Shown here: positions 1,907-44,042 of the stretch, in pieces
How positions within the stretch are numbered: the first letter of the stretch is position 1
How the letters are laid out: each line of letters opens with the position of its first letter
From: a virus
DNA: 49,636 nt
Virus record (IMG/VR): IMGVR_UViG_3300033987_000055
Strand: one strand, 5' to 3'
The notes under the pieces: generated by a model
The model's input: the letters and a program-made list of their open reading frames with translations, nothing else
Databases searched by the model: none
Told to the model about the DNA's origin: nothing
Made by a program: the position numbers and the translations under genes

Positions 1907-2833
1907 CTAATCTTCGAATGGAGTTCCTTCAAATTCACTTTCATCAAAATCTATATCTTCATAATCTGCTTCTACTATTTCTTCTTTGGATTCTTCTTGG
2001 TAATTCTGTAAGTATTTAATTAGCCTATCAGCTTCAATAGTTGTTAATTGCTTGCTTGATTCTTTACCAAATTGCTCTTTAATGTACTTTTTCATTTCTT
2101 CATTATCTATGTTTTTCTGTTTTGCAAGTTTATAGATAAAATCTAATTGCCTGTTAGTAGCTAAATTGCTTTGTTCTTCTTTAACTACTTCATCTTTTCC
2201 AATGTCATTTTCAATAACTGTTGCATCTACTTTAATTGGAGTTTCATCAAGCTTACTGTCATCTATAGGCATTTCTTCTGGACTGTATAATCCTCCAAAT
2301 TCTTCAGGTATTGCCTCTCTTAGAGCCTGTACTAAAGCAACTTTTCTAATCATTGTTGCGGGCATCTTCTGCCAATTAGTCATTAGGTCGCCTTTGCTGT
2401 TATATCTTTGATATTCCTCTAGCCCTACTGTTATTTCCATTGGAACATTCCAATCTTTTCTGTATACTCTAGCCCAACCACCTACAAGGGTTTCCTTTGG
2501 AAGCACTAATGCTCCTTTCCTATATTCAACAGTTCCATCTTCTTTTTGGACTATTACTCCTGCTTCATAGCCTGTACATAATTTTGATTTAGCTGCTCTT
2601 TTTACAAATGTATCTTTACCTGTAACCATAGTGGCTGGACTATTGCCAAATTTGATTAGATATGCTTCTCTTAAGAATGGGTTTAGATTTTGGTATTTGC
2701 ACATTTGTATAAACATCATTACTTCTTGGTCTGTTACCTTAGATGAATCTCCAGACACAAGGTATTTCTTTACAATATCTTTAGAAAGTGTAACTTCACC
2801 ATTATCGGTTTCATACTTTACTATATTACTCAC
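1907..2833 (-). CDS. recT: RecT/Bet-family single-strand annealing recombinase
   Basis: 308 aa. N-terminal two thirds (..DQEVMMFIQMCKYQNLNPFLREAYLIKFG..TGKDTFVKRA..) resemble RecT/Bet. Acidic C-terminal tail. Confidence 0.85.
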   Translation of the reverse strand: MSNIVKYETDNGEVTLSKDIVKKYLVSGDSSKVTDQEVMMFIQMCKYQNLNPFLREAYLIKFGNSPATMVTGKDTFVKRAAKSKLCTGYEAGVIVQKEDGTVEYRKGALVLPKETLVGGWARVYRKDWNVPMEITVGLEEYQRYNSKGDLMTNWQKMPATMIRKVALVQALREAIPEEFGGLYSPEEMPIDDSKLDETPIKVDATVIENDIGKDEVVKEEQSNLATNRQLDFIYKLAKQKNIDNEEMKKYIKEQFGKESSKQLTTIEADRLIKYLQNYQEESKEEIVEADYEDIDFDESEFEGTPFED

Positions 2834-5642: not shown

Positions 5643-7229
5643 ATGAAAATAGCTATATATTCTAGAAAATCAAGGTTTTCAGAATCAGGTGAATCAGTAG
5701 AGAATCAAATTCAACTTTGCAAAGAATATATTGAAAAGCATTTTGATAATATAGAAAAGTTTTACATATATGAGGATGAAGGCTTTTCAGGTGGAAATAC
5801 AGATAGACCTCAATTTCAATTAATGCTAAAAGATGCGAAAAATAAAAAATTTGATGTACTAGTTTGTTATCGCTTAGATAGAGTGAGCAGAAATATTGCC
5901 GATTTCTCAAATCTAATAGAAGAATTACAAAGACACGATATATCTTTTATTTCTATAAAAGAACAATTTGATACTTCTACCCCTTTAGGTCGTGCTATGA
6001 TGTATATTGCTTCTGTATTTGCTCAATTAGAAAGGGAAACAATTGCAGAAAGAATAAGAGATAACATGCACCAATTAGCCAAAACAGGAAGATGGTTAGG
6101 AGGGACAACCCCTCTAGGATTTGATAGTGAACCTATTACATATATAGACCATGAAGGAAAGCAAAAAAAGATGTATAAATTATCACCTATTAAAGGAGAA
6201 CTTGAAATTGTTAAACTTATTTTTGATAAATACTTAGAATTTCAATCTTTAAGTCAATTAGAAGTATTTTGTCTGCAAAATAATATAAAAACACGCAAAG
6301 GAAAAGATTTCGGGAAAATTACTTTAAGACGTATATTAACAAATCCTGTTTATTGCAAAGCTGATATAGATGCTTATAATTACTTTTATGAAAATAAAGC
6401 TTTAATTTGTGATGATAAATCAAAATATAATGGGAAATATGGATTAATAGGATATAATAAAAACTTTAAAAAAGGTGCAATGGTTATACAGAAAGATATA
6501 TCAGAATGGATTATAGCAATTGGAAAGCATAAAGGAATTATAGATGGGAAAGGTTGGGTAGAGGTACAAAATATATTAAATAGAAGAAAAGATTTATCTC
6601 CTAGGCAAGCTACTTCTCATTATGCTTTACTAAGTGGTCTAATCAGATGTAAAAAATGTAATGGGTCTATGATAGTTAAATATGGGCCTATAAAATCAGG
6701 AACAAATAAAAGAATTGCTTATTACGTTTGCAGAATGAAAGTAAATTCAAGACAAGCTAGATGTCAAAATACAAATTTAAGAGTAGATGAGACCGATAAA
6801 TATGTTATAGATGAATTAAAAAAATTAATAGAAACTGGAGTATTAAAAGATTTAGATAAAGCTCAAAAACAATTAGAAAATAAAAACTTAATGAGAAAAA
6901 ATATAAAAGATAAAATATCAGAAAATGAAAAAGCTATAGATAACTTACTTAAGCAATTAGCTAAAACCGAAAATGAAATTATCACAAAATATATATTTGC
7001 AGAAATTGAAAAGTTAGATAAGGAAAACAAGGAATTAAAAGAAAAGCTTGAAAATTATAATATTGAAAATCAAATAGTAAATATTTCAGTTTTCAAAAAT
7101 GCTTGTATCAAGTTCTATGAAATGATTGATAATGTTCCAATAGAACAAAAAAGAAACCTTTTACAATCTATTGTAAATAAGGTTTGGTGGGATGGTGAAA
7201 ATCTAGAAATAGATTTATTTGACATTTAA
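5643..7229 (+). CDS. int: Large serine recombinase (phage integrase)
   Basis: 528 aa. Resolvase-type N-domain (IYSRKSRFS..YRLDRVSRN), recombinase domain, zinc-ribbon CKKCNGSM..YYVCR, C-terminal coiled coil. Confidence 0.9.
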   Translation: MKIAIYSRKSRFSESGESVENQIQLCKEYIEKHFDNIEKFYIYEDEGFSGGNTDRPQFQLMLKDAKNKKFDVLVCYRLDRVSRNIADFSNLIEELQRHDISFISIKEQFDTSTPLGRAMMYIASVFAQLERETIAERIRDNMHQLAKTGRWLGGTTPLGFDSEPITYIDHEGKQKKMYKLSPIKGELEIVKLIFDKYLEFQSLSQLEVFCLQNNIKTRKGKDFGKITLRRILTNPVYCKADIDAYNYFYENKALICDDKSKYNGKYGLIGYNKNFKKGAMVIQKDISEWIIAIGKHKGIIDGKGWVEVQNILNRRKDLSPRQATSHYALLSGLIRCKKCNGSMIVKYGPIKSGTNKRIAYYVCRMKVNSRQARCQNTNLRVDETDKYVIDELKKLIETGVLKDLDKAQKQLENKNLMRKNIKDKISENEKAIDNLLKQLAKTENEIITKYIFAEIEKLDKENKELKEKLENYNIENQIVNISVFKNACIKFYEMIDNVPIEQKRNLLQSIVNKVWWDGENLEIDLFDI

Positions 7230-38698: not shown

Positions 38699-39028
38699 TT
38701 AACTCCTTTCTATAACTAATATAGCAGGATTAGCAACCCCATCGCCCTCATAATTATATTGTTTATTATGCCATTTTCGCAATTCTTCACCGTATTGCCA
38801 ACATTGAGACAGTATAGAAACTACTGCACCATACATAAAACCTGTAATTCCCTCTATATCTGCTTGATGAGATGTTGATTCTGCTATGTCTTCTAATTTA
38901 TACCCTTCTGTAATCTTTTCTTCCATTAGATTAGCCCATCTTTCAGCATATCTAAATACAGCAGAGCCATAAGGGTCAGTATTATTTGCTTTCCAATCTT
39001 CATAAACTTTGATATCTTTAACTTTCAT
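38699..39028 (-). CDS. Hypothetical protein (109 aa)
   Basis: ORF track. RBS GGGAGGAA. Confidence 0.55.
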   Translation of the reverse strand: MKVKDIKVYEDWKANNTDPYGSAVFRYAERWANLMEEKITEGYKLEDIAESTSHQADIEGITGFMYGAVVSILSQCWQYGEELRKWHNKQYNYEGDGVANPAILVIERS

Positions 39029-39166
39029 TTATAAAATTCCTCCCATCATAATAAATAATCTAATGCATATTGAATACCAAATCTGTCTAATAATTTTTGT
39101 CTATATTCTCTTATAAGCTCTTTTTCGTTAGCTGATTGATATATTTATCCCTTCTAGCTTTTTAAA

Positions 39167-39207
39167 TTTATAATATAATATCTCTATAGCTTACATTTTC
39201 CCTGCCC
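39167..39207 (-). repeat. Direct repeat flanking the Cas operon (downstream copy)
   Basis: tttataatataatatctctatagcttacattttccctgccc. About 36 of 41 aligned positions match 44004..44042. Confidence 0.8.
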
Positions 39208-39262: not shown

Positions 39263-39982
39263 TTAATCCTCATAACAACATTTATCAAATTCAACTTTCT
39301 CTAATAGTCCCATTCCCTGCCCGCATCTTGAACCTAGTCCTGCATTATATGCTAACCTAATCAGATCTCTATCCCCTTCTAAAGCTATTAATCCAACATA
39401 ACCTCTATAAGTATCCTTCTTATATTTGAAATATTCTGGTCTATGAGATAGAATTTTTATTTTCACGTCTCTTGCTGGTAATTTCCCATAAAGTGCATAA
39501 TATTTTTCTATAAGATTTTCTCCTAATTTTACTTCCATTTCTCTGAGTTTCAGCCACTTTCCGTCAATCCTTGTAGCATACACTGGACTAACTGCTTGGA
39601 ATATTTCTGAATTAGTCAATGCAGGCTCTTTTATGTAACTTATGCTGTGTATATTGAAACTATATCCAAATAATTGGATGCTACCTATCTTCATTAACCC
39701 TTGCACAAATTTAATTACAGTCTCCTTTACTGCTGAAGAAAATACCAACGTAGCTATCCCTTTCTTTAAATGAAACTGTGCTATTCGCTTATTTTGACTA
39801 ATGTTATAAACAAAGAAAACATATTTTTTATAGCCTACTTTCTTATAGCCTTCATGCAATTTCGTTGCATATTCTTCATCAACTTCAGCTATAGCTCTAT
39901 AGATAAAAGCTGTCATTGCTTCATTTAAAGGACTATAGAAATCTAAATCTTTGTTTACTATAAAATTCACTTGTACTCTCAT
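39263..39982 (-). CDS. cas6: Cas6-family endoribonuclease
   Basis: 239 aa. Double-ferredoxin-like layout, ..ATKLHEGYKK..FVYNIS.., C-terminal glycine-rich loop AGLGSRCGQGMGLL. Confidence 0.75.
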   Translation of the reverse strand: MRVQVNFIVNKDLDFYSPLNEAMTAFIYRAIAEVDEEYATKLHEGYKKVGYKKYVFFVYNISQNKRIAQFHLKKGIATLVFSSAVKETVIKFVQGLMKIGSIQLFGYSFNIHSISYIKEPALTNSEIFQAVSPVYATRIDGKWLKLREMEVKLGENLIEKYYALYGKLPARDVKIKILSHRPEYFKYKKDTYRGYVGLIALEGDRDLIRLAYNAGLGSRCGQGMGLLEKVEFDKCCYED

Positions 39983-41141
39983 CTACATCCCCCCCTGGCA
40001 CTAAACATAATTCTGTTTCTTTTCTCCAATAAGGAGGTAAAATAGGATGTTGTCTAGCATAAATAGGAATTTGTTTCATCATCATTTCTTCTATTTTCCC
40101 TTTGCATTCCTCTGCTGGGATTGGTCTCATAAGCTTTCCGTCTTTCCATATACTCCAGTCTTCCTCAATTTCTTCAAATTCCCATTTGCCAACTTGACCA
40201 AAGCCCTGACTTCCCTTTTTGCCTAAATAGAAGATGTAATTTTCTAGCAATCTTTTTACTTCTTCCATATCCCCTCTAACATAAAAAGTAATGGTTTTGT
40301 AACTTTGTATTACAACAGGCATGTGGTAGTTTTTATAAAATCCTGCTCCTATATCTACCCTTTCCTTGCCTTTGCCGTTGAATTTTACTATATCATCATT
40401 TTTATCATCCCAGCGTTTACTCCAACTTGTTACGCTTTCTCTATGCTCCCCAATCCCAATACTGGTACAATATACTCCATATTTTCTATCTAGAATTGGA
40501 TCTAACATTGTTCTTATTTGTTCTTCAGTTCCAACTACATTTTTACCTGAATAAAATTCTTCTCCTAATATTTCTTTTGCTTTTGCTGCTGATATAATTG
40601 AATCTAATATAATTGGCTCTATCGTTGCTATTGGAGTTCTCATATGTGCTACTACTTTGAAGTTTTTAAACATATCAATCTCCCCTAATAATAATTTTTT
40701 ACTTTCAGGAAACCTAAGATATTTTTCATCCAGATCGTTAGTCCTGGTTCTGTCTAAAGCATCACAATCTTTAAACACCTTTAATAAATATACAGCAGTG
40801 TCCTTATCTACAATATAATTTTCTACTGCCTTTATTCCATTTCTGTCACTAATACAGTGATTTTCTATTATATACTTTACATATTCGTAATTTGGCATGT
40901 TTAGATGAAGATTATGTTTCTCCAATTTTTTAATACTCTTAAATCCATGCTTAGTGTCTGTTCCATTATGTTCTCGCCCTATATCATGATATAAGGCTGC
41001 ATTATATAATATCTGTCTTTGTACTGGACCTATATCTAACAATGTAGACAGCTTTGTTACATTTGCAAGTACCCTATAAGCATGTTCTGTTCCATGAATG
41101 CCATTTGCATCTTTAAAAAGTTGACCATACTCATTAAACAT
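39933..41141 (-). CDS. csf3: HD-domain phosphohydrolase fused to a Cas5/Csf3-like RAMP
   Basis: N-terminal H..HD..H..D motifs (HGTEHAYRV, LYHDIGREH, ENH, DCDALDR). C-terminal half has VVAHMRTPIATIEPIILDSIISAA and the G-rich loop LGKKGSQGFGQVG. Confidence 0.65.
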   Translation of the reverse strand: MFNEYGQLFKDANGIHGTEHAYRVLANVTKLSTLLDIGPVQRQILYNAALYHDIGREHNGTDTKHGFKSIKKLEKHNLHLNMPNYEYVKYIIENHCISDRNGIKAVENYIVDKDTAVYLLKVFKDCDALDRTRTNDLDEKYLRFPESKKLLLGEIDMFKNFKVVAHMRTPIATIEPIILDSIISAAKAKEILGEEFYSGKNVVGTEEQIRTMLDPILDRKYGVYCTSIGIGEHRESVTSWSKRWDDKNDDIVKFNGKGKERVDIGAGFYKNYHMPVVIQSYKTITFYVRGDMEEVKRLLENYIFYLGKKGSQGFGQVGKWEFEEIEEDWSIWKDGKLMRPIPAEECKGKIEEMMMKQIPIYARQHPILPPYWRKETELCLVPGGDVDESTSEFYSKQRFRFL

Positions 41142-41898
41142 ATTGCTTCACCTCTGGGAAAGCTTCTTCCAATTTTTTGTATAATTCTGGATAATTTAAT
41201 TTTAGAAAAACTGCTGTGCCTTGATGTAATAGATCTGTAGCTGTTACATAACCTAACCTTATCCAAGTGTTCCCGTTGACACATTTTTTAAAGTATATCG
41301 GGTGAATTGGTAAATTATATTTAACAAGTGTTGCTGCTACATCTTCTAACTTGTACCATAAAATTGGGTAGCAAACCTTACAATAAGTTGGTACATTTGT
41401 TTCAAAATTCATCCCATGTGCTCTTGCTGCTTTCATTCTTCTCTTGCTTTCATATGCTCTTACACCTATAAAAGCTAAGTCTTTCTTTTCGGATTCCACA
41501 AAATTTTTAATTGCATCAAAAAAATATCCTCGCTTACCAAACTGAACTTTGCTACCTTTTCCCACTACATCAAAAGCTGATACCGGAGACCAATCTATAA
41601 TAACTTCTCTACCTAGATGCTCTGCTGTTAATTTAATTATGTCTTCTGTGTGAGGGAATGAAGCATCCGACAAGTGTGCCCACATTACAAAATCCCTTCC
41701 CATCTCTTTGGCAACTTCATTAACTAGCCCAGCCATTGCTACACTATCTTTACCACCACTAATTGCTAGGTATGGATTTTTGCATCTTTCAAACGCTTCT
41801 CTAATTGCTTGCTTCGCTCTTTCTTCTTTTTTCTTGAAGGAAGATAGCTGCATAGCTACCTTCCCCATTTTTACTAAATCAATATTTCTAAAGTTCAT
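41134..41898 (-). CDS. PAPS-reductase/CysH-like PP-loop ATPase (type IV-B-associated cysH-like)
   Basis: PP-loop YLAISGGKDSVAM. No C-terminal ECG(L/I)H redox motif is visible. Confidence 0.8.
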   Translation of the reverse strand: MNFRNIDLVKMGKVAMQLSSFKKKEERAKQAIREAFERCKNPYLAISGGKDSVAMAGLVNEVAKEMGRDFVMWAHLSDASFPHTEDIIKLTAEHLGREVIIDWSPVSAFDVVGKGSKVQFGKRGYFFDAIKNFVESEKKDLAFIGVRAYESKRRMKAARAHGMNFETNVPTYCKVCYPILWYKLEDVAATLVKYNLPIHPIYFKKCVNGNTWIRLGYVTATDLLHQGTAVFLKLNYPELYKKLEEAFPEVKQYV

Positions 41899-42734
41899 TA
41901 TTTTAAAACCCCTTCTATTTCTCTAATCCACTGTCTTATCTCTTCTTTATTTTCTTCTAGGTAGTTGTAGTAGGTTTCTTCACTTTCTAGTTCGTCATAC
42001 TGTATATCTACTTGCCCATGCCCTGCTGCTGATTTTCCTCCTATGAATGGTACCTCTTTTAATTTCTTTAGTGTAGCGTTTACCATTGCTTCTTCTACTT
42101 TATTGACGTTCTCGATTACTATAGTTCCTATTAATTCAGTTCCTGCGGATAGACATTGCATTTCATATTTCATTTGCACTGGGTCATCATTTTTCTTTTT
42201 GGCTACTTCCTCTTTGATGTTGTATTCTACAGACTTAAGGTCGTCTTTCCTTGTATAAAATACTTCTTCTAGCATGTCATAGAAGGATATATCGCTTTCT
42301 ATACCTGTATAATCTACTGTTTCCTTGCATATTGGTAGGAATATTGGAGCTTTCATTTTCCCTTGAAGTATTTGGTCCCCTATAGCTGTTCCAAGTAGAG
42401 CTAATGGCGGACACATCTTTCTAATTCTTCTTCTCTCTCCTACTTCTACATATCTAGCTCCGCCGACTAAAGCTCCACCAGTAAATAGAGTATAATATAG
42501 TTTCTCTGAAATTCCTTCTTCAGCAATACCCAATCTTTCAAGATAATCCCTCATAGCTATTCTTCTAAATTGTCCCCTGAATCCATTACCTGAATAAACT
42601 GGTATATCTATGAATTCACCGTTGTATAAGAATTTGTTTGTCCTCATAATCTGCATAGTTCCTAATCTTTCATCTCCAAAGTGGCTTAGTGGGCTTAATA
42701 ATTTCATCCTCACATCAATTTTTATATTATCCAT
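41898..42734 (-). CDS. csf2: Cas7-family RAMP (Csf2-like backbone subunit)
   Basis: IPVYSGNGFRGQFRRIAMRDYL and the C-terminal FIGGKSAAGHGQV glycine-rich loop. Confidence 0.75.
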   Translation of the reverse strand: MDNIKIDVRMKLLSPLSHFGDERLGTMQIMRTNKFLYNGEFIDIPVYSGNGFRGQFRRIAMRDYLERLGIAEEGISEKLYYTLFTGGALVGGARYVEVGERRRIRKMCPPLALLGTAIGDQILQGKMKAPIFLPICKETVDYTGIESDISFYDMLEEVFYTRKDDLKSVEYNIKEEVAKKKNDDPVQMKYEMQCLSAGTELIGTIVIENVNKVEEAMVNATLKKLKEVPFIGGKSAAGHGQVDIQYDELESEETYYNYLEENKEEIRQWIREIEGVLK

Positions 42735-43185
42735 CTATCTTAACCCCTTTCTCTGTAAATTTTACTTGTCTATTCCTTTCTTTTAATTCTCTTTCTCTCA
42801 ATTCTTGTTCTTTTAAGGATTCTTCCATTGCTTTTCTTGCATCTCTGTTTAGTCGAACTTCTAGTACTAACTGCAATGTTTCTTCTCTTATCAGCTTTAG
42901 TACTGCTTGTTTGAATTCCTCTGACTGTTGGCTAACATCTCTAAATATTCTGCTTCTTAAACTTCTGACGTCCATTTTTCTAGCTAGTTTTTCCACAAAG
43001 TTTTCATATGAGTTTGTAGTCATTGCTGCTGCTTTGATTTTGTTTCCAAATTCATCCCAAATGCCGTATGCTCTTCTTGAATCTACCTTGTCCCAGTCTA
43101 TACAGGACCAAATACCGTATATGGTAGATATGGCTACATCTCGTATGTTTTCTTCTGTGAAAGCAATTTCTATACGTCTATCCAT
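42727..43185 (-). CDS. cas11: Cas11-like small helical subunit
   Basis: 152 aa, all-helical by composition, Arg/Glu-rich. The call rests on its position between the csf1-like gene and csf2. Confidence 0.45.
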   Translation of the reverse strand: MDRRIEIAFTEENIRDVAISTIYGIWSCIDWDKVDSRRAYGIWDEFGNKIKAAAMTTNSYENFVEKLARKMDVRSLRSRIFRDVSQQSEEFKQAVLKLIREETLQLVLEVRLNRDARKAMEESLKEQELRERELKERNRQVKFTEKGVKIDG

Positions 43186-43195
43186 TTTATCCCTC

Positions 43196-43975
43196 CTAAA
43201 ATAGTTTTAATTGACCTTCTACTTGACTTTGTTCTTTTTCCTTTTGCTGTTTTTGTGCTTGCTTTTGCTTTTTCTTTTCTTCTTTCTGCTTCTTGATTCT
43301 TTCCTCAACTATTTTGTTTCTTTCCTCGCTGTTTAGTATGTATACTAGTAGATCGAATTGATGTGTACCTCTGTACTGCCTAATTACATCTTCATGTGCT
43401 TTGAATCTTTCTAACCCATATTCTTCTATTCTTGCTATAGAGTATTGCCCAGTCAATATCTCATCCTTTTGAAAATACATATACATATCCCAAATTATGT
43501 CGTATAATACTTTCATGTTTGCTCTATCAAATACGTATTCTTTATCCTCTTCTCTGATTATAAATACATTTGTGTTGTTGTTTACCTTACATCTATAAGA
43601 GTTGTGTTTTTTAAAGCTTCTCGTGATGCCAATTACAAAATCACCTGATACATACTTGTCTATGTTGAATAGATATTCTTCTAAGTCGTTTTTCTTCAGT
43701 AGATATAAGTTGTCTTTGTCTGCTATGATGTTATTTGTTCTTAGTTCCCTTATTTTTACACATGTTGCACATTCCTTGCATATATGAGTACCTTGTATGT
43801 TTGCGAATACGTCATAGTCAGTAAAGTTCCCTGATACTACTTTCTTGTATTTAACGCCTTCTCTGATTTCTTTGCCACACATCATGCATTTTGTTTCTAC
43901 ATCTTCTAGTTCTAGATCTGGAAGCTCTATGTTAGATTTCTTCAATGCACTGTATATGATTTCAGTTGCGTTCAA
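43196..43975 (-). CDS. csf1: Csf1-like (Cas8-like) large subunit with a zinc finger
   Basis: 259 aa. CMMCGKE..(n32)..HICKECATC. TTG start after GGGGGTGA. First gene of the operon. Lys/Glu-rich tail. Confidence 0.5.
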   Translation of the reverse strand: MNATEIIYSALKKSNIELPDLELEDVETKCMMCGKEIREGVKYKKVVSGNFTDYDVFANIQGTHICKECATCVKIRELRTNNIIADKDNLYLLKKNDLEEYLFNIDKYVSGDFVIGITRSFKKHNSYRCKVNNNTNVFIIREEDKEYVFDRANMKVLYDIIWDMYMYFQKDEILTGQYSIARIEEYGLERFKAHEDVIRQYRGTHQFDLLVYILNSEERNKIVEERIKKQKEEKKKQKQAQKQQKEKEQSQVEGQLKLF

Positions 43976-44003
43976 CTTATCACCCCCTTTGCTTATAGTT
44001 AAG

Positions 44004-44042
44004 TTTATAATATAATATCTTTAGCTAACATTTTTCCTGCCC
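44004..44042 (-). repeat. Direct repeat flanking the Cas operon (upstream copy, about 30 nt before the csf1 start)
   Basis: tttataatataatatctttagctaacatttttcctgccc. Confidence 0.8.

Follow-up and report, generated by a model that had tools for sequence, protein, structure and literature searches.

Among CRISPR-Cas subtypes, type IV-B has the most poorly understood function. It possesses neither array nor nuclease nor helicase, and its CysH-like partner is enigmatic (PMC7038947, PMC8175902, PMC7937560). A viral record of 49,636 nucleotides (nt), IMGVR_UViG_3300033987_000055, raises the question of what an HD domain might be doing on a structural subunit of such a complex. In this stretch, hereafter the window, an operon with the order csf1-cas11-csf2-cysH-like-HD::csf3-cas6 includes an open reading frame (ORF) in which an HD domain precedes Csf3, the Cas5-type subunit, without interruption. 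An earlier note, made from the letters of the window alone, had pointed to this fusion. The feature that we find most informative was absent from that note: by comparison with related loci, the HD segment is a discrete, recently mobile cassette lying in a variable accessory slot.

The HD-Csf3 fusion is a genuine single gene

The features of the fusion gene are as follows (positions are those of the window).

39933 to 41141, minus strand: HD::csf3 fusion ORF, one ATG-to-stop frame of 402 amino acids (aa) as read in the window
40674 to 41141, minus strand: part coding for the HD domain, aa 1-156 (Pfam, family alignment, phmmer, AlphaFold2 model)
39993 to 40673, minus strand: Csf3 (Cas5) domain, aa 157-383 (PADLOC, Foldseek, homologue alignment)
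40671 to 40685, minus strand: internal Shine-Dalgarno sequence GGGGAG (40685-40680), 6-nt spacer and ATG of Met157 (40673-40671) (sequence, junction alignment)
39989 to 39995, minus strand: homopolymer of seven G residues, one more than in five related loci (DNA alignment)

The fusion is genuine and not an artefact. The plus-strand reading of the same interval is closed by many stops. As the earlier note had it, the HD and Cas5/Csf3 parts lie in one ORF, and independent assemblies likewise contain a single ORF rather than two. The exact protein is also on record from a 49,650-bp contig, and the identical in-frame junction between HD and csf3 is present in 12 fetched records originating from various samples, assemblers and archives (ENA, JGI, Logan and NCBI). 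At the DNA level, the junction is the same letter for letter in the window and in loci L001, L002 and L008. Exact or near-exact fusions, 380 to 402 aa in length, occur in many independent assemblies. They include P0001, found in ENA samples ERZ926707 and ERZ926710; P0246, present in 19 contigs, one of which is an NCBI metagenome-assembled genome; and P0258, in seven contigs, among them contigs of 800 kb and 514 kb with prophage. Further members are P0245, P0254, P0264 and L119, along with one IMG/VR contig and one JGI contig. A tblastn search of the INPHARED phage collection gave no match, nor did a scan of genome contigs with a single protein; a scan of metagenome contigs with the HD retrieved one locus only.

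The N-terminal half is an intact HD domain

Pfam recognises its HD family (PF01966) in aa 19-101 (E=7e-7), and the score of 30 bits exceeds the gathering cut-off of 22. When aa 1-157 were compared by phmmer with 1.84 billion representative proteins, 1078 matches were obtained at E<=1e-3, of which 384 also pass the stricter limit of E<=1e-10, placing the match far beyond chance. Across the window protein and 18 homologues, invariant positions are H16, G17, H20, R23, H52, D53, G55, R56, H65, G66, E93, N94, H95, D125, D127, R131 and R133. The metal-ligand pattern formed by H20, H52-D53 and D125/D127, together with H16, H65 and H95, is intact in all fusion variants. Thus, the complete H..HD..H..D signature described in the earlier note is borne out, the residues quoted there being family-invariant columns conserved in homologues. 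For aa 1-157, AlphaFold2 predicts an all-helical structure of eight helices, with a predicted local distance difference test score (pLDDT) of 91 and a predicted template modelling score of 0.89.

Among sequence models, the best-scoring family is that of the HDIG-type phosphohydrolases, to which PgpH, the uridylyl-removing domain of GlnD and YqeK belong. The window HD contains the literal HDIG motif (YHDIGR) and scores just below the cut-off of TIGR00277 (E=1.8e-5; 24.5 bits against 27.6), whereas another family member, P0108, lies above it with 30.7 bits; the window HD also differs from the HDIG-type enzymes in belonging to an uncharacterised subfamily of 1078 representatives. Models of the GlnD uridylyl-removing HD match with E of about 2e-3. 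Matches among viral structures are unnamed or generic HD hydrolases; the top matches among PDB and viral folds all have the HD/phosphodiesterase (PDE) fold, none with E<1e-3. Searches of PDB by sequence and by profile gave no informative relative of the HD, and a PHROGs search returned families of unknown function only.

Most homologues of the HD either are free-standing proteins of 180-210 aa or occupy the C-terminal part of longer proteins (about 450 aa) of unknown function. No recurring partner was seen in the genomic contexts of four free-standing homologues (P0087, P0093, P0096 and P0097). The closest relatives outside CRISPR loci, P0079-P0095 (e.g., L009 6001-7362 and L010 6001-7404), are chromosomal Bacillota proteins of the 450-aa kind. 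Neither Pfam nor PADLOC has a match for their N-terminal 290 aa or so, which carry conserved YRG, SWT and NExE motifs; to the eye, these motifs call R-S-E ADP-ribosyltransferases to mind.

The C-terminal half is Csf3, joined without linker

PADLOC model Csf3_0_IV covers aa 157-383 with E=3.3e-46. The NCBIfam model cas5_csf3 also matches (E=5e-14), under its equivalog cut-off. In a model of the full-length protein this half has a pLDDT of about 90, and Foldseek aligns it with the type IV-A Csf3 chains 8rc2_F, 8rc3_F and 7xg1_B (E from 1e-10 to 9e-10; target-normalised TM scores of 0.64-0.65). The glycine-rich loop GKKGSQGFG is invariant or nearly so in 76 aligned sequences. The Csf3 fold found by Foldseek agrees with the earlier assignment of the C-terminal half to Cas5-type RAMP proteins. 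That assignment had put the domain boundary near residue 170; the alignment moves it to 156/157. Some 75 Csf3 homologues that stand alone, 221-234 aa long, begin exactly at Met157 (MFKNFK...), so the two domains adjoin without a linker. Plain Csf3 may also be made, from the Met157 start, since a strong Shine-Dalgarno sequence lies 6 nt ahead of it. The homologues of about 450 aa were left out of the full-length model because MAFFT had placed them on Csf3 instead of on the N-terminal HD of the fusion; the HD half of this model is poor, and the HD was modelled separately.

The far end of the gene is less uniform. The extra G in the homopolymer shifts the csf3 frame past the conserved stop (TAG, 39985-39983) and adds a tail of 19 aa (aa 384-402; pLDDT <50) that overlaps cas6 by 50 nt. 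In relatives, Csf3 ends with PEGM and a stop right before the cas6 ATG. The additional residue is either a true lineage variant or a homopolymer sequencing error; it may be real, as a second 402-aa variant (P0242) is found in three other contigs.

In one Csf3 homologue, P0014 (274 aa), a C-terminal extension has two CxxC pairs and is zinc-ribbon-like, which indicates that the termini of Csf3 take other add-on domains too.

The HD is a recently transferred cassette

Two further features bear on the origin of the fusion.

40677 to 41157: transferred HD cassette, approximate limits (sliding-window identity and alignment of L011 with L025)
Locus L024 (IMGVR_UViG_3300029822_000593): separate HD gene of 136 aa between cysH and csf3, stopping 4 nt before the csf3 ATG

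The proteins of the window operon and of locus L011 have diverged considerably, with identities of 52% for Csf1, 57% for Cas11, 65% for Csf2, 55% for CysH, 65% for Csf3 and 54% for Cas6, whereas the HD domains are 97% identical. In DNA, identity reaches 95-100% within 41157-40677 only, a block that extends from some 16 nt ahead of the HD ATG to the csf3 ATG, and drops to 50-70% in the flanks. Locus L025 is nearly identical to L011 in cysH and csf3, with scattered mismatches only, but lacks exactly this block of about 480 bp and has a short spacer instead. Between the window and its closer relative L001, too, synonymous divergence is 0.04 in HD but 0.56 in csf3. Finally, L024, of a third lineage, has a separate HD gene whose protein shares just 38% identity with the window HD; the motif residues are all present, and the scores lie above the cut-offs of both Pfam HD and NCBIfam HDIG (38.6 bits for the latter). 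Near identity of the HD in lineages whose Cas proteins are 52-65% identical, absence of the block from L025 and the diverged, separate HD of L024 together identify the HD as a discrete mobile accessory cassette of about 0.47 kb that, by these alignments, moved recently between type IV-B lineages. Because of the L024 gene, linkage of an HD to Csf3 is seen in fused and in unfused form.

The cassette is inserted exactly at the csf3 start codon, and the junction is always the same and in frame. Its start, ATGTTTAA, overlaps the stop of cysH, and its end lies just ahead of the csf3 ATGTTTAA. Translation from the cysH-coupled ATG would thus read straight into Csf3 with no linker. In some loci without HD (L003), the stop of the upstream gene likewise overlaps the csf3 start. 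We infer that exchange of the cassette probably uses short stretches that are conserved where cysH ends and csf3 begins. Recombination of the phage RecT type could have provided the route, as the window encodes a RecT.

The csf2-csf3 interval accommodates different modules

Our own profiles were used to survey 118 loci. The interval between csf2 and csf3 varies widely among them, one state being cysH alone. In L003-L006, L034, L035 and L100, cysH is accompanied by genes for an IbrA-like protein and a ParB_N protein; in L022 and L026 the interval holds a gene for a helix-turn-helix protein, and in L023 one for a GT2-like protein. In a sub-clade, cysH is replaced by a family of about 225 aa (L020 781-1506, L021 7262-8008, L041, L042, L046, L048 and L050). 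A gene for a QueT queuosine-precursor transporter (Pfam, E=9e-29) stands beside the family member in L042. Searches of the family in Pfam, NCBIfam and PDB sequences gave no match; a relationship to TGT/DpdA, suspected by eye, found no support in them. The cysH gene itself is exchanged as a module, since the CysH proteins of the window (41134-41898) and of L004 (2733-3509) are only 35% identical while Csf1, Cas11, Csf2 and Csf3 of the two loci are 87-91% identical. The csf2-csf3 interval is thus a site of module swapping, which suggests that IV-B complexes serve as platforms recruiting different enzymes.

The IbrA-like protein (PAPS_reduct plus DUF3440, about 430 aa) and the ParB_N protein (about 230 aa) form a pair that recurs with type IV-B loci in organisms ranging from Clostridia to Halovenus, an archaeon. 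It lies near the locus in L059, L060, L087, L094, L117 and L118; in close relatives of the window, it fills the slot of the HD cassette.

The operon is an atypical type IV-B system carried by a temperate phage

The remaining genes of the operon are listed here from first to last.

43196 to 43975, minus strand: csf1, type IV large subunit, first gene of the operon (PADLOC Csf1_0_IV, E=2.3e-36; NCBIfam cas8u_csf1, E=5.5e-12, below cut-off)
42727 to 43185, minus strand: cas11-like small subunit (PADLOC Cas11_1_IV, E=3.3e-22)
41898 to 42734, minus strand: csf2, Cas7 backbone subunit (PADLOC Csf2_0_IV, E=1.3e-64; NCBIfam cas7_csf2, E=4.4e-15, below equivalog cut-off)
41134 to 41898, minus strand: cysH-like PP-loop gene of the PAPS-reductase family, the signature accessory of type IV-B (Pfam PAPS_reduct, E=3.5e-13; SGGKDS motif in the translation)
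39263 to 39982, minus strand: cas6 endoribonuclease, last gene of the operon (NCBIfam cas_cas6, E=2e-25, above cut-off; Pfam Cas6 N- and C-terminal domains)

All genes are on the same strand and either overlap or are separated by gaps of about 10 nt; the stop of the cysH-like gene overlaps the ATG of HD::csf3 by 8 nt (ATGTTTAA). The stretch from csf1 to cas6 is contiguous and has no other ORF, and none of the six proteins has a helicase or Cas1/Cas2 match in PADLOC. No CRISPR array, mini-array or Rfam repeat was detected in the 49.6-kb window (Tandem Repeats Finder, a repeat finder and Rfam), and no array adjoins cas6 in five related loci. Type IV-B is defined by csf1, cas11, csf2, csf3 and a cysH-like gene and is without array, helicase and Cas6 (PMC7038947; PMC8175902); Cas6 was reported in just 12 IV-B loci (PMC7038947). 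The best PADLOC model for the Cas6 of the window is Cas6b (E=3.9e-38). By gene content the locus classifies as an atypical IV-B variant with Cas6, so labelled because Cas6 is a rare exception in this subtype. The earlier note's view of an otherwise nuclease-less complex is upheld in one respect, as no other nuclease or helicase was found in the operon, and needs amending in another, as Cas6 is present at the locus.

The DNA of the window is that of a temperate phage whose relatives include prophages of Clostridia. Its phage genes include those for large terminase, portal, capsid, large serine recombinase, RecT, SSB, MazG and HNH. Three features are of interest here.

1907-2833, minus strand: RecT (E=2e-43)
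5643-7229, plus strand: large serine recombinase with Resolvase, Recombinase and Zn_ribbon_recom domains (domain matches)
38699-39028, minus strand: homologue of Tad4, an inhibitor of type I Thoeris (PF25186, E=4e-41), with cas6 lying 235 nt upstream of it

RecT and the serine recombinase indicate a temperate phage with single-strand-annealing recombination of its own, which fits an exchange of the cassette through short homologies. The Tad4 homologue places the cas operon next to a known phage counter-defence gene.

Near-identical AT-rich copies of about 40 nt bracket the cas operon, at 39162-39203 (just downstream of cas6) and 43999-44038 (just upstream of csf1). No such pair is expected by chance, and none was found around the operon in L011, L015 and L004. 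The element could be a duplicated promoter/operator or a scar of cassette insertion.

What the HD domain might do

In all likelihood the HD domain is an active metal-dependent phosphohydrolase, whose substrate would be either a nucleic acid or a nucleotide. Our preferred reading, which we put forward tentatively, is that the domain would be a phosphodiesterase tethered to the Csf complex and acting on the nucleic acid bound there. By analogy with solved type IV-A complexes, Csf3/Cas5 would be present in a single copy, capping the 5' end of the guide RNA beside Csf1; because of this single copy, each Csf ribonucleoprotein would have one HD active site. The domain might cut the bound RNA or the displaced DNA strand, or else trim the bound RNA. 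An otherwise enzyme-less complex would thereby gain an effector, as in Cas5-HNH, Cas8-HNH and DinG-HNH systems and with the HD of type IV-C. The guides would have to be non-CRISPR RNAs or else be derived from CRISPR transcripts of the host that the phage Cas6 has cut; with its resemblance to Cas6b, this protein might process type I-B transcripts. A nucleic acid is the favoured substrate by analogy with the HNH systems and type IV-C, and because direct fusion to a structural subunit that binds RNA, with no linker, best suits a substrate that is bound to the complex.

Several observations weigh against this proposal. The HD of Cas3''/Cas3 in type I systems shares with the window HD the superfamily and the H...HD...H...H...D metal-ligand pattern, but the Cas3 HD model (NCBIfam cas3_HD, TIGR01596) aligns with aa 19-55 only and reaches 14 bits against a cut-off of 43.45. 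The best fold neighbours in PDB are the C-terminal domains of GppA/PPX, PDE4/PDE5 and the c-di-AMP phosphodiesterase PgpH; all PDB fold matches are weak (E >=0.02; TM scores of 0.5-0.57), and no Cas3 or Cas10 HD is present among the 50 listed. A profile of the family picks up generic HD-motif matches only among PDB sequences (type III-D Cas10 with E=0.007, an HD-GYP protein and V-cGAP3). In the full-length model, the HD half has a pLDDT of about 55 and no reliable position relative to Csf3. No array that could supply guides was found in the window or beside cas6 in related loci. Because of the internal start, the fused form may be the lesser product. Lastly, the HD domains of the fusions differ from each other by 3-9 nonsynonymous and 1-7 synonymous changes per pair, with nonsynonymous divergence (pN) about equal to synonymous divergence (pS) in one pair, and the cassette is so young that its conservation among fusions says little about selection. 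By sequence and predicted fold, the window HD is HDIG/phosphodiesterase-like and not Cas3-like; the word nuclease in the earlier note is not supported by the HDIG-type similarity, the failure of the Cas3 HD model and the PDE-like fold neighbours.

The main alternative, which we judge less likely, holds that the HD is not a nuclease but a small-molecule nucleotide phosphohydrolase or phosphodiesterase. The enzyme might work with the CysH-like PP-loop enzyme, for instance by removing or processing an adenylylated intermediate, or it might degrade signalling nucleotides of host immunity as a phage counter-defence; fusion to Csf3 would then serve co-expression or localisation. Consistent with it, HDIG and the GlnD uridylyl-removing HD are the best sequence models, members of the family and the HD of L024 match HDIG, and the latter weakly matches the YqeK Ap4A hydrolase. 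The fold neighbours GppA/PPX, cyclic-nucleotide PDEs and PgpH, and a weak profile match to the cyclic GMP-AMP (cGAMP) phosphodiesterase V-cGAP3, point in the same direction. So does gene order: the cassette always directly follows cysH and is translationally coupled to it, other occupants of the slot look like nucleotide or modification enzymes (the IbrA-like PAPS-reductase with ParB_N, QueT), and an anti-Thoeris Tad4 gene lies nearby. However, a diffusible substrate creates no obvious need for linker-less fusion to an RNA-binding structural subunit, and the structural matches are all weak. Furthermore, HDIG-type domains include true RNases such as RNase Y, with which the HDIG similarity becomes compatible with a nuclease as well.

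It is quite improbable, in our estimate, that the HD is a newly acquired passenger without a role in the Csf complex. In that case the working Csf3 would be the one started at Met157, and the long fusion would be a tolerated by-product or an independent enzyme made from the cysH-coupled start. Retention of the strong Shine-Dalgarno sequence 6 nt before Met157, the very young age of the cassette (pS of 0.01-0.08) and the fact that most homologous loci do without HD, with Csf3 stand-alone in about 75 homologues, would all be accounted for. What speaks against it is that the in-frame junction is kept in four cassette variants and two diverged host lineages with no frameshift or stop separating the halves, that a diverged HD gene occupies the same position in L024, and that the catalytic residues are all intact. 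As to an assembly or sequencing artefact, in which an indel or a chimeric contig would have joined two genes, the one homopolymer length difference in the window is at the 3' end of csf3 and not at the junction, and the 12 records with the same in-frame junction, some of them prophages within contigs of 0.5-0.8 Mb, and the clean boundaries between L011 (cassette present) and L025 (absent) lead us to reject it as scarcely credible.

Relation to known systems

The locus has the same five gene families as canonical type IV-B systems such as that of Mycobacterium sp. JS623 (PMC7937560), including the adjacent cysH-like gene, and like them it is without adaptation module, helicase and CRISPR array and lies on a mobile element (PMC7038947, PMC8175902). 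It differs from them in that Csf3 bears an N-terminal HD, Cas6 is present, the carrier is a temperate phage, and cysH stands before csf3 with a variable accessory slot in between. In type IV-C, a Cas10-like large subunit has an N-terminal HD described as Cas3-like (PMC7038947, PMC8175902). The two have in common a type IV effector complex with an HD on a subunit of its own and no helicase; in IV-C, however, the Cas10-like subunit replaces Csf1, whereas here Csf1 and cysH are present and the HD, of HDIG-like type, is on Csf3/Cas5. Cas5-HNH and Cas8-HNH, variants of types I-E and I-F, and DinG-HNH, a variant of type IV-A, restore cleavage without Cas3 (PMC10910872, PMC11794572). These too have an enzymatic domain on a class 1 subunit where the usual trans-acting nuclease is absent, in one case with Cas5 as the carrier. 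In contrast to the present locus, which has an HD of predicted activity and no array, they have an HNH domain, CRISPR arrays and RNA-guided DNA cleavage demonstrated by experiment.

A full-text literature search found no description of an HD-Csf3 or HD-Cas5 fusion, recent type IV-B work included. The reviews and surveys of type IV that were consulted place an HD solely on the Cas10-like protein of IV-C, and a search under the Pfam name HD-CE brought up unrelated papers only. New here are the IV-B variant with a Cas5-borne HD cassette, the mobility of this cassette and the swapping of modules in the csf2-csf3 interval.

Implications for type IV-B biology

An intact catalytic domain on Cas5 offers a concrete activity to assay and a point mutant (H52A/D53A) to go with it. 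Matching loci in which the HD is fused, unfused (L024) or absent (L025) amount to ready-made genetic controls. A bolder form of the preferred reading, improbable as we see it, is that the fusion would make the array-less phage IV-B complex an RNA-guided nuclease, loaded with Cas6-processed host CRISPR RNAs or other RNAs and directed against competing mobile elements or the host. The csf2-csf3 slot would then be a general docking site in which HD, IbrA/ParB and QueT-linked effector modules are swapped. If the HD does cut nucleic acid under RNA guidance, the complex would be a compact class 1 effector beside systems of the Cas5-HNH type, and the first of its subtype to offer a tractable catalytic read-out.

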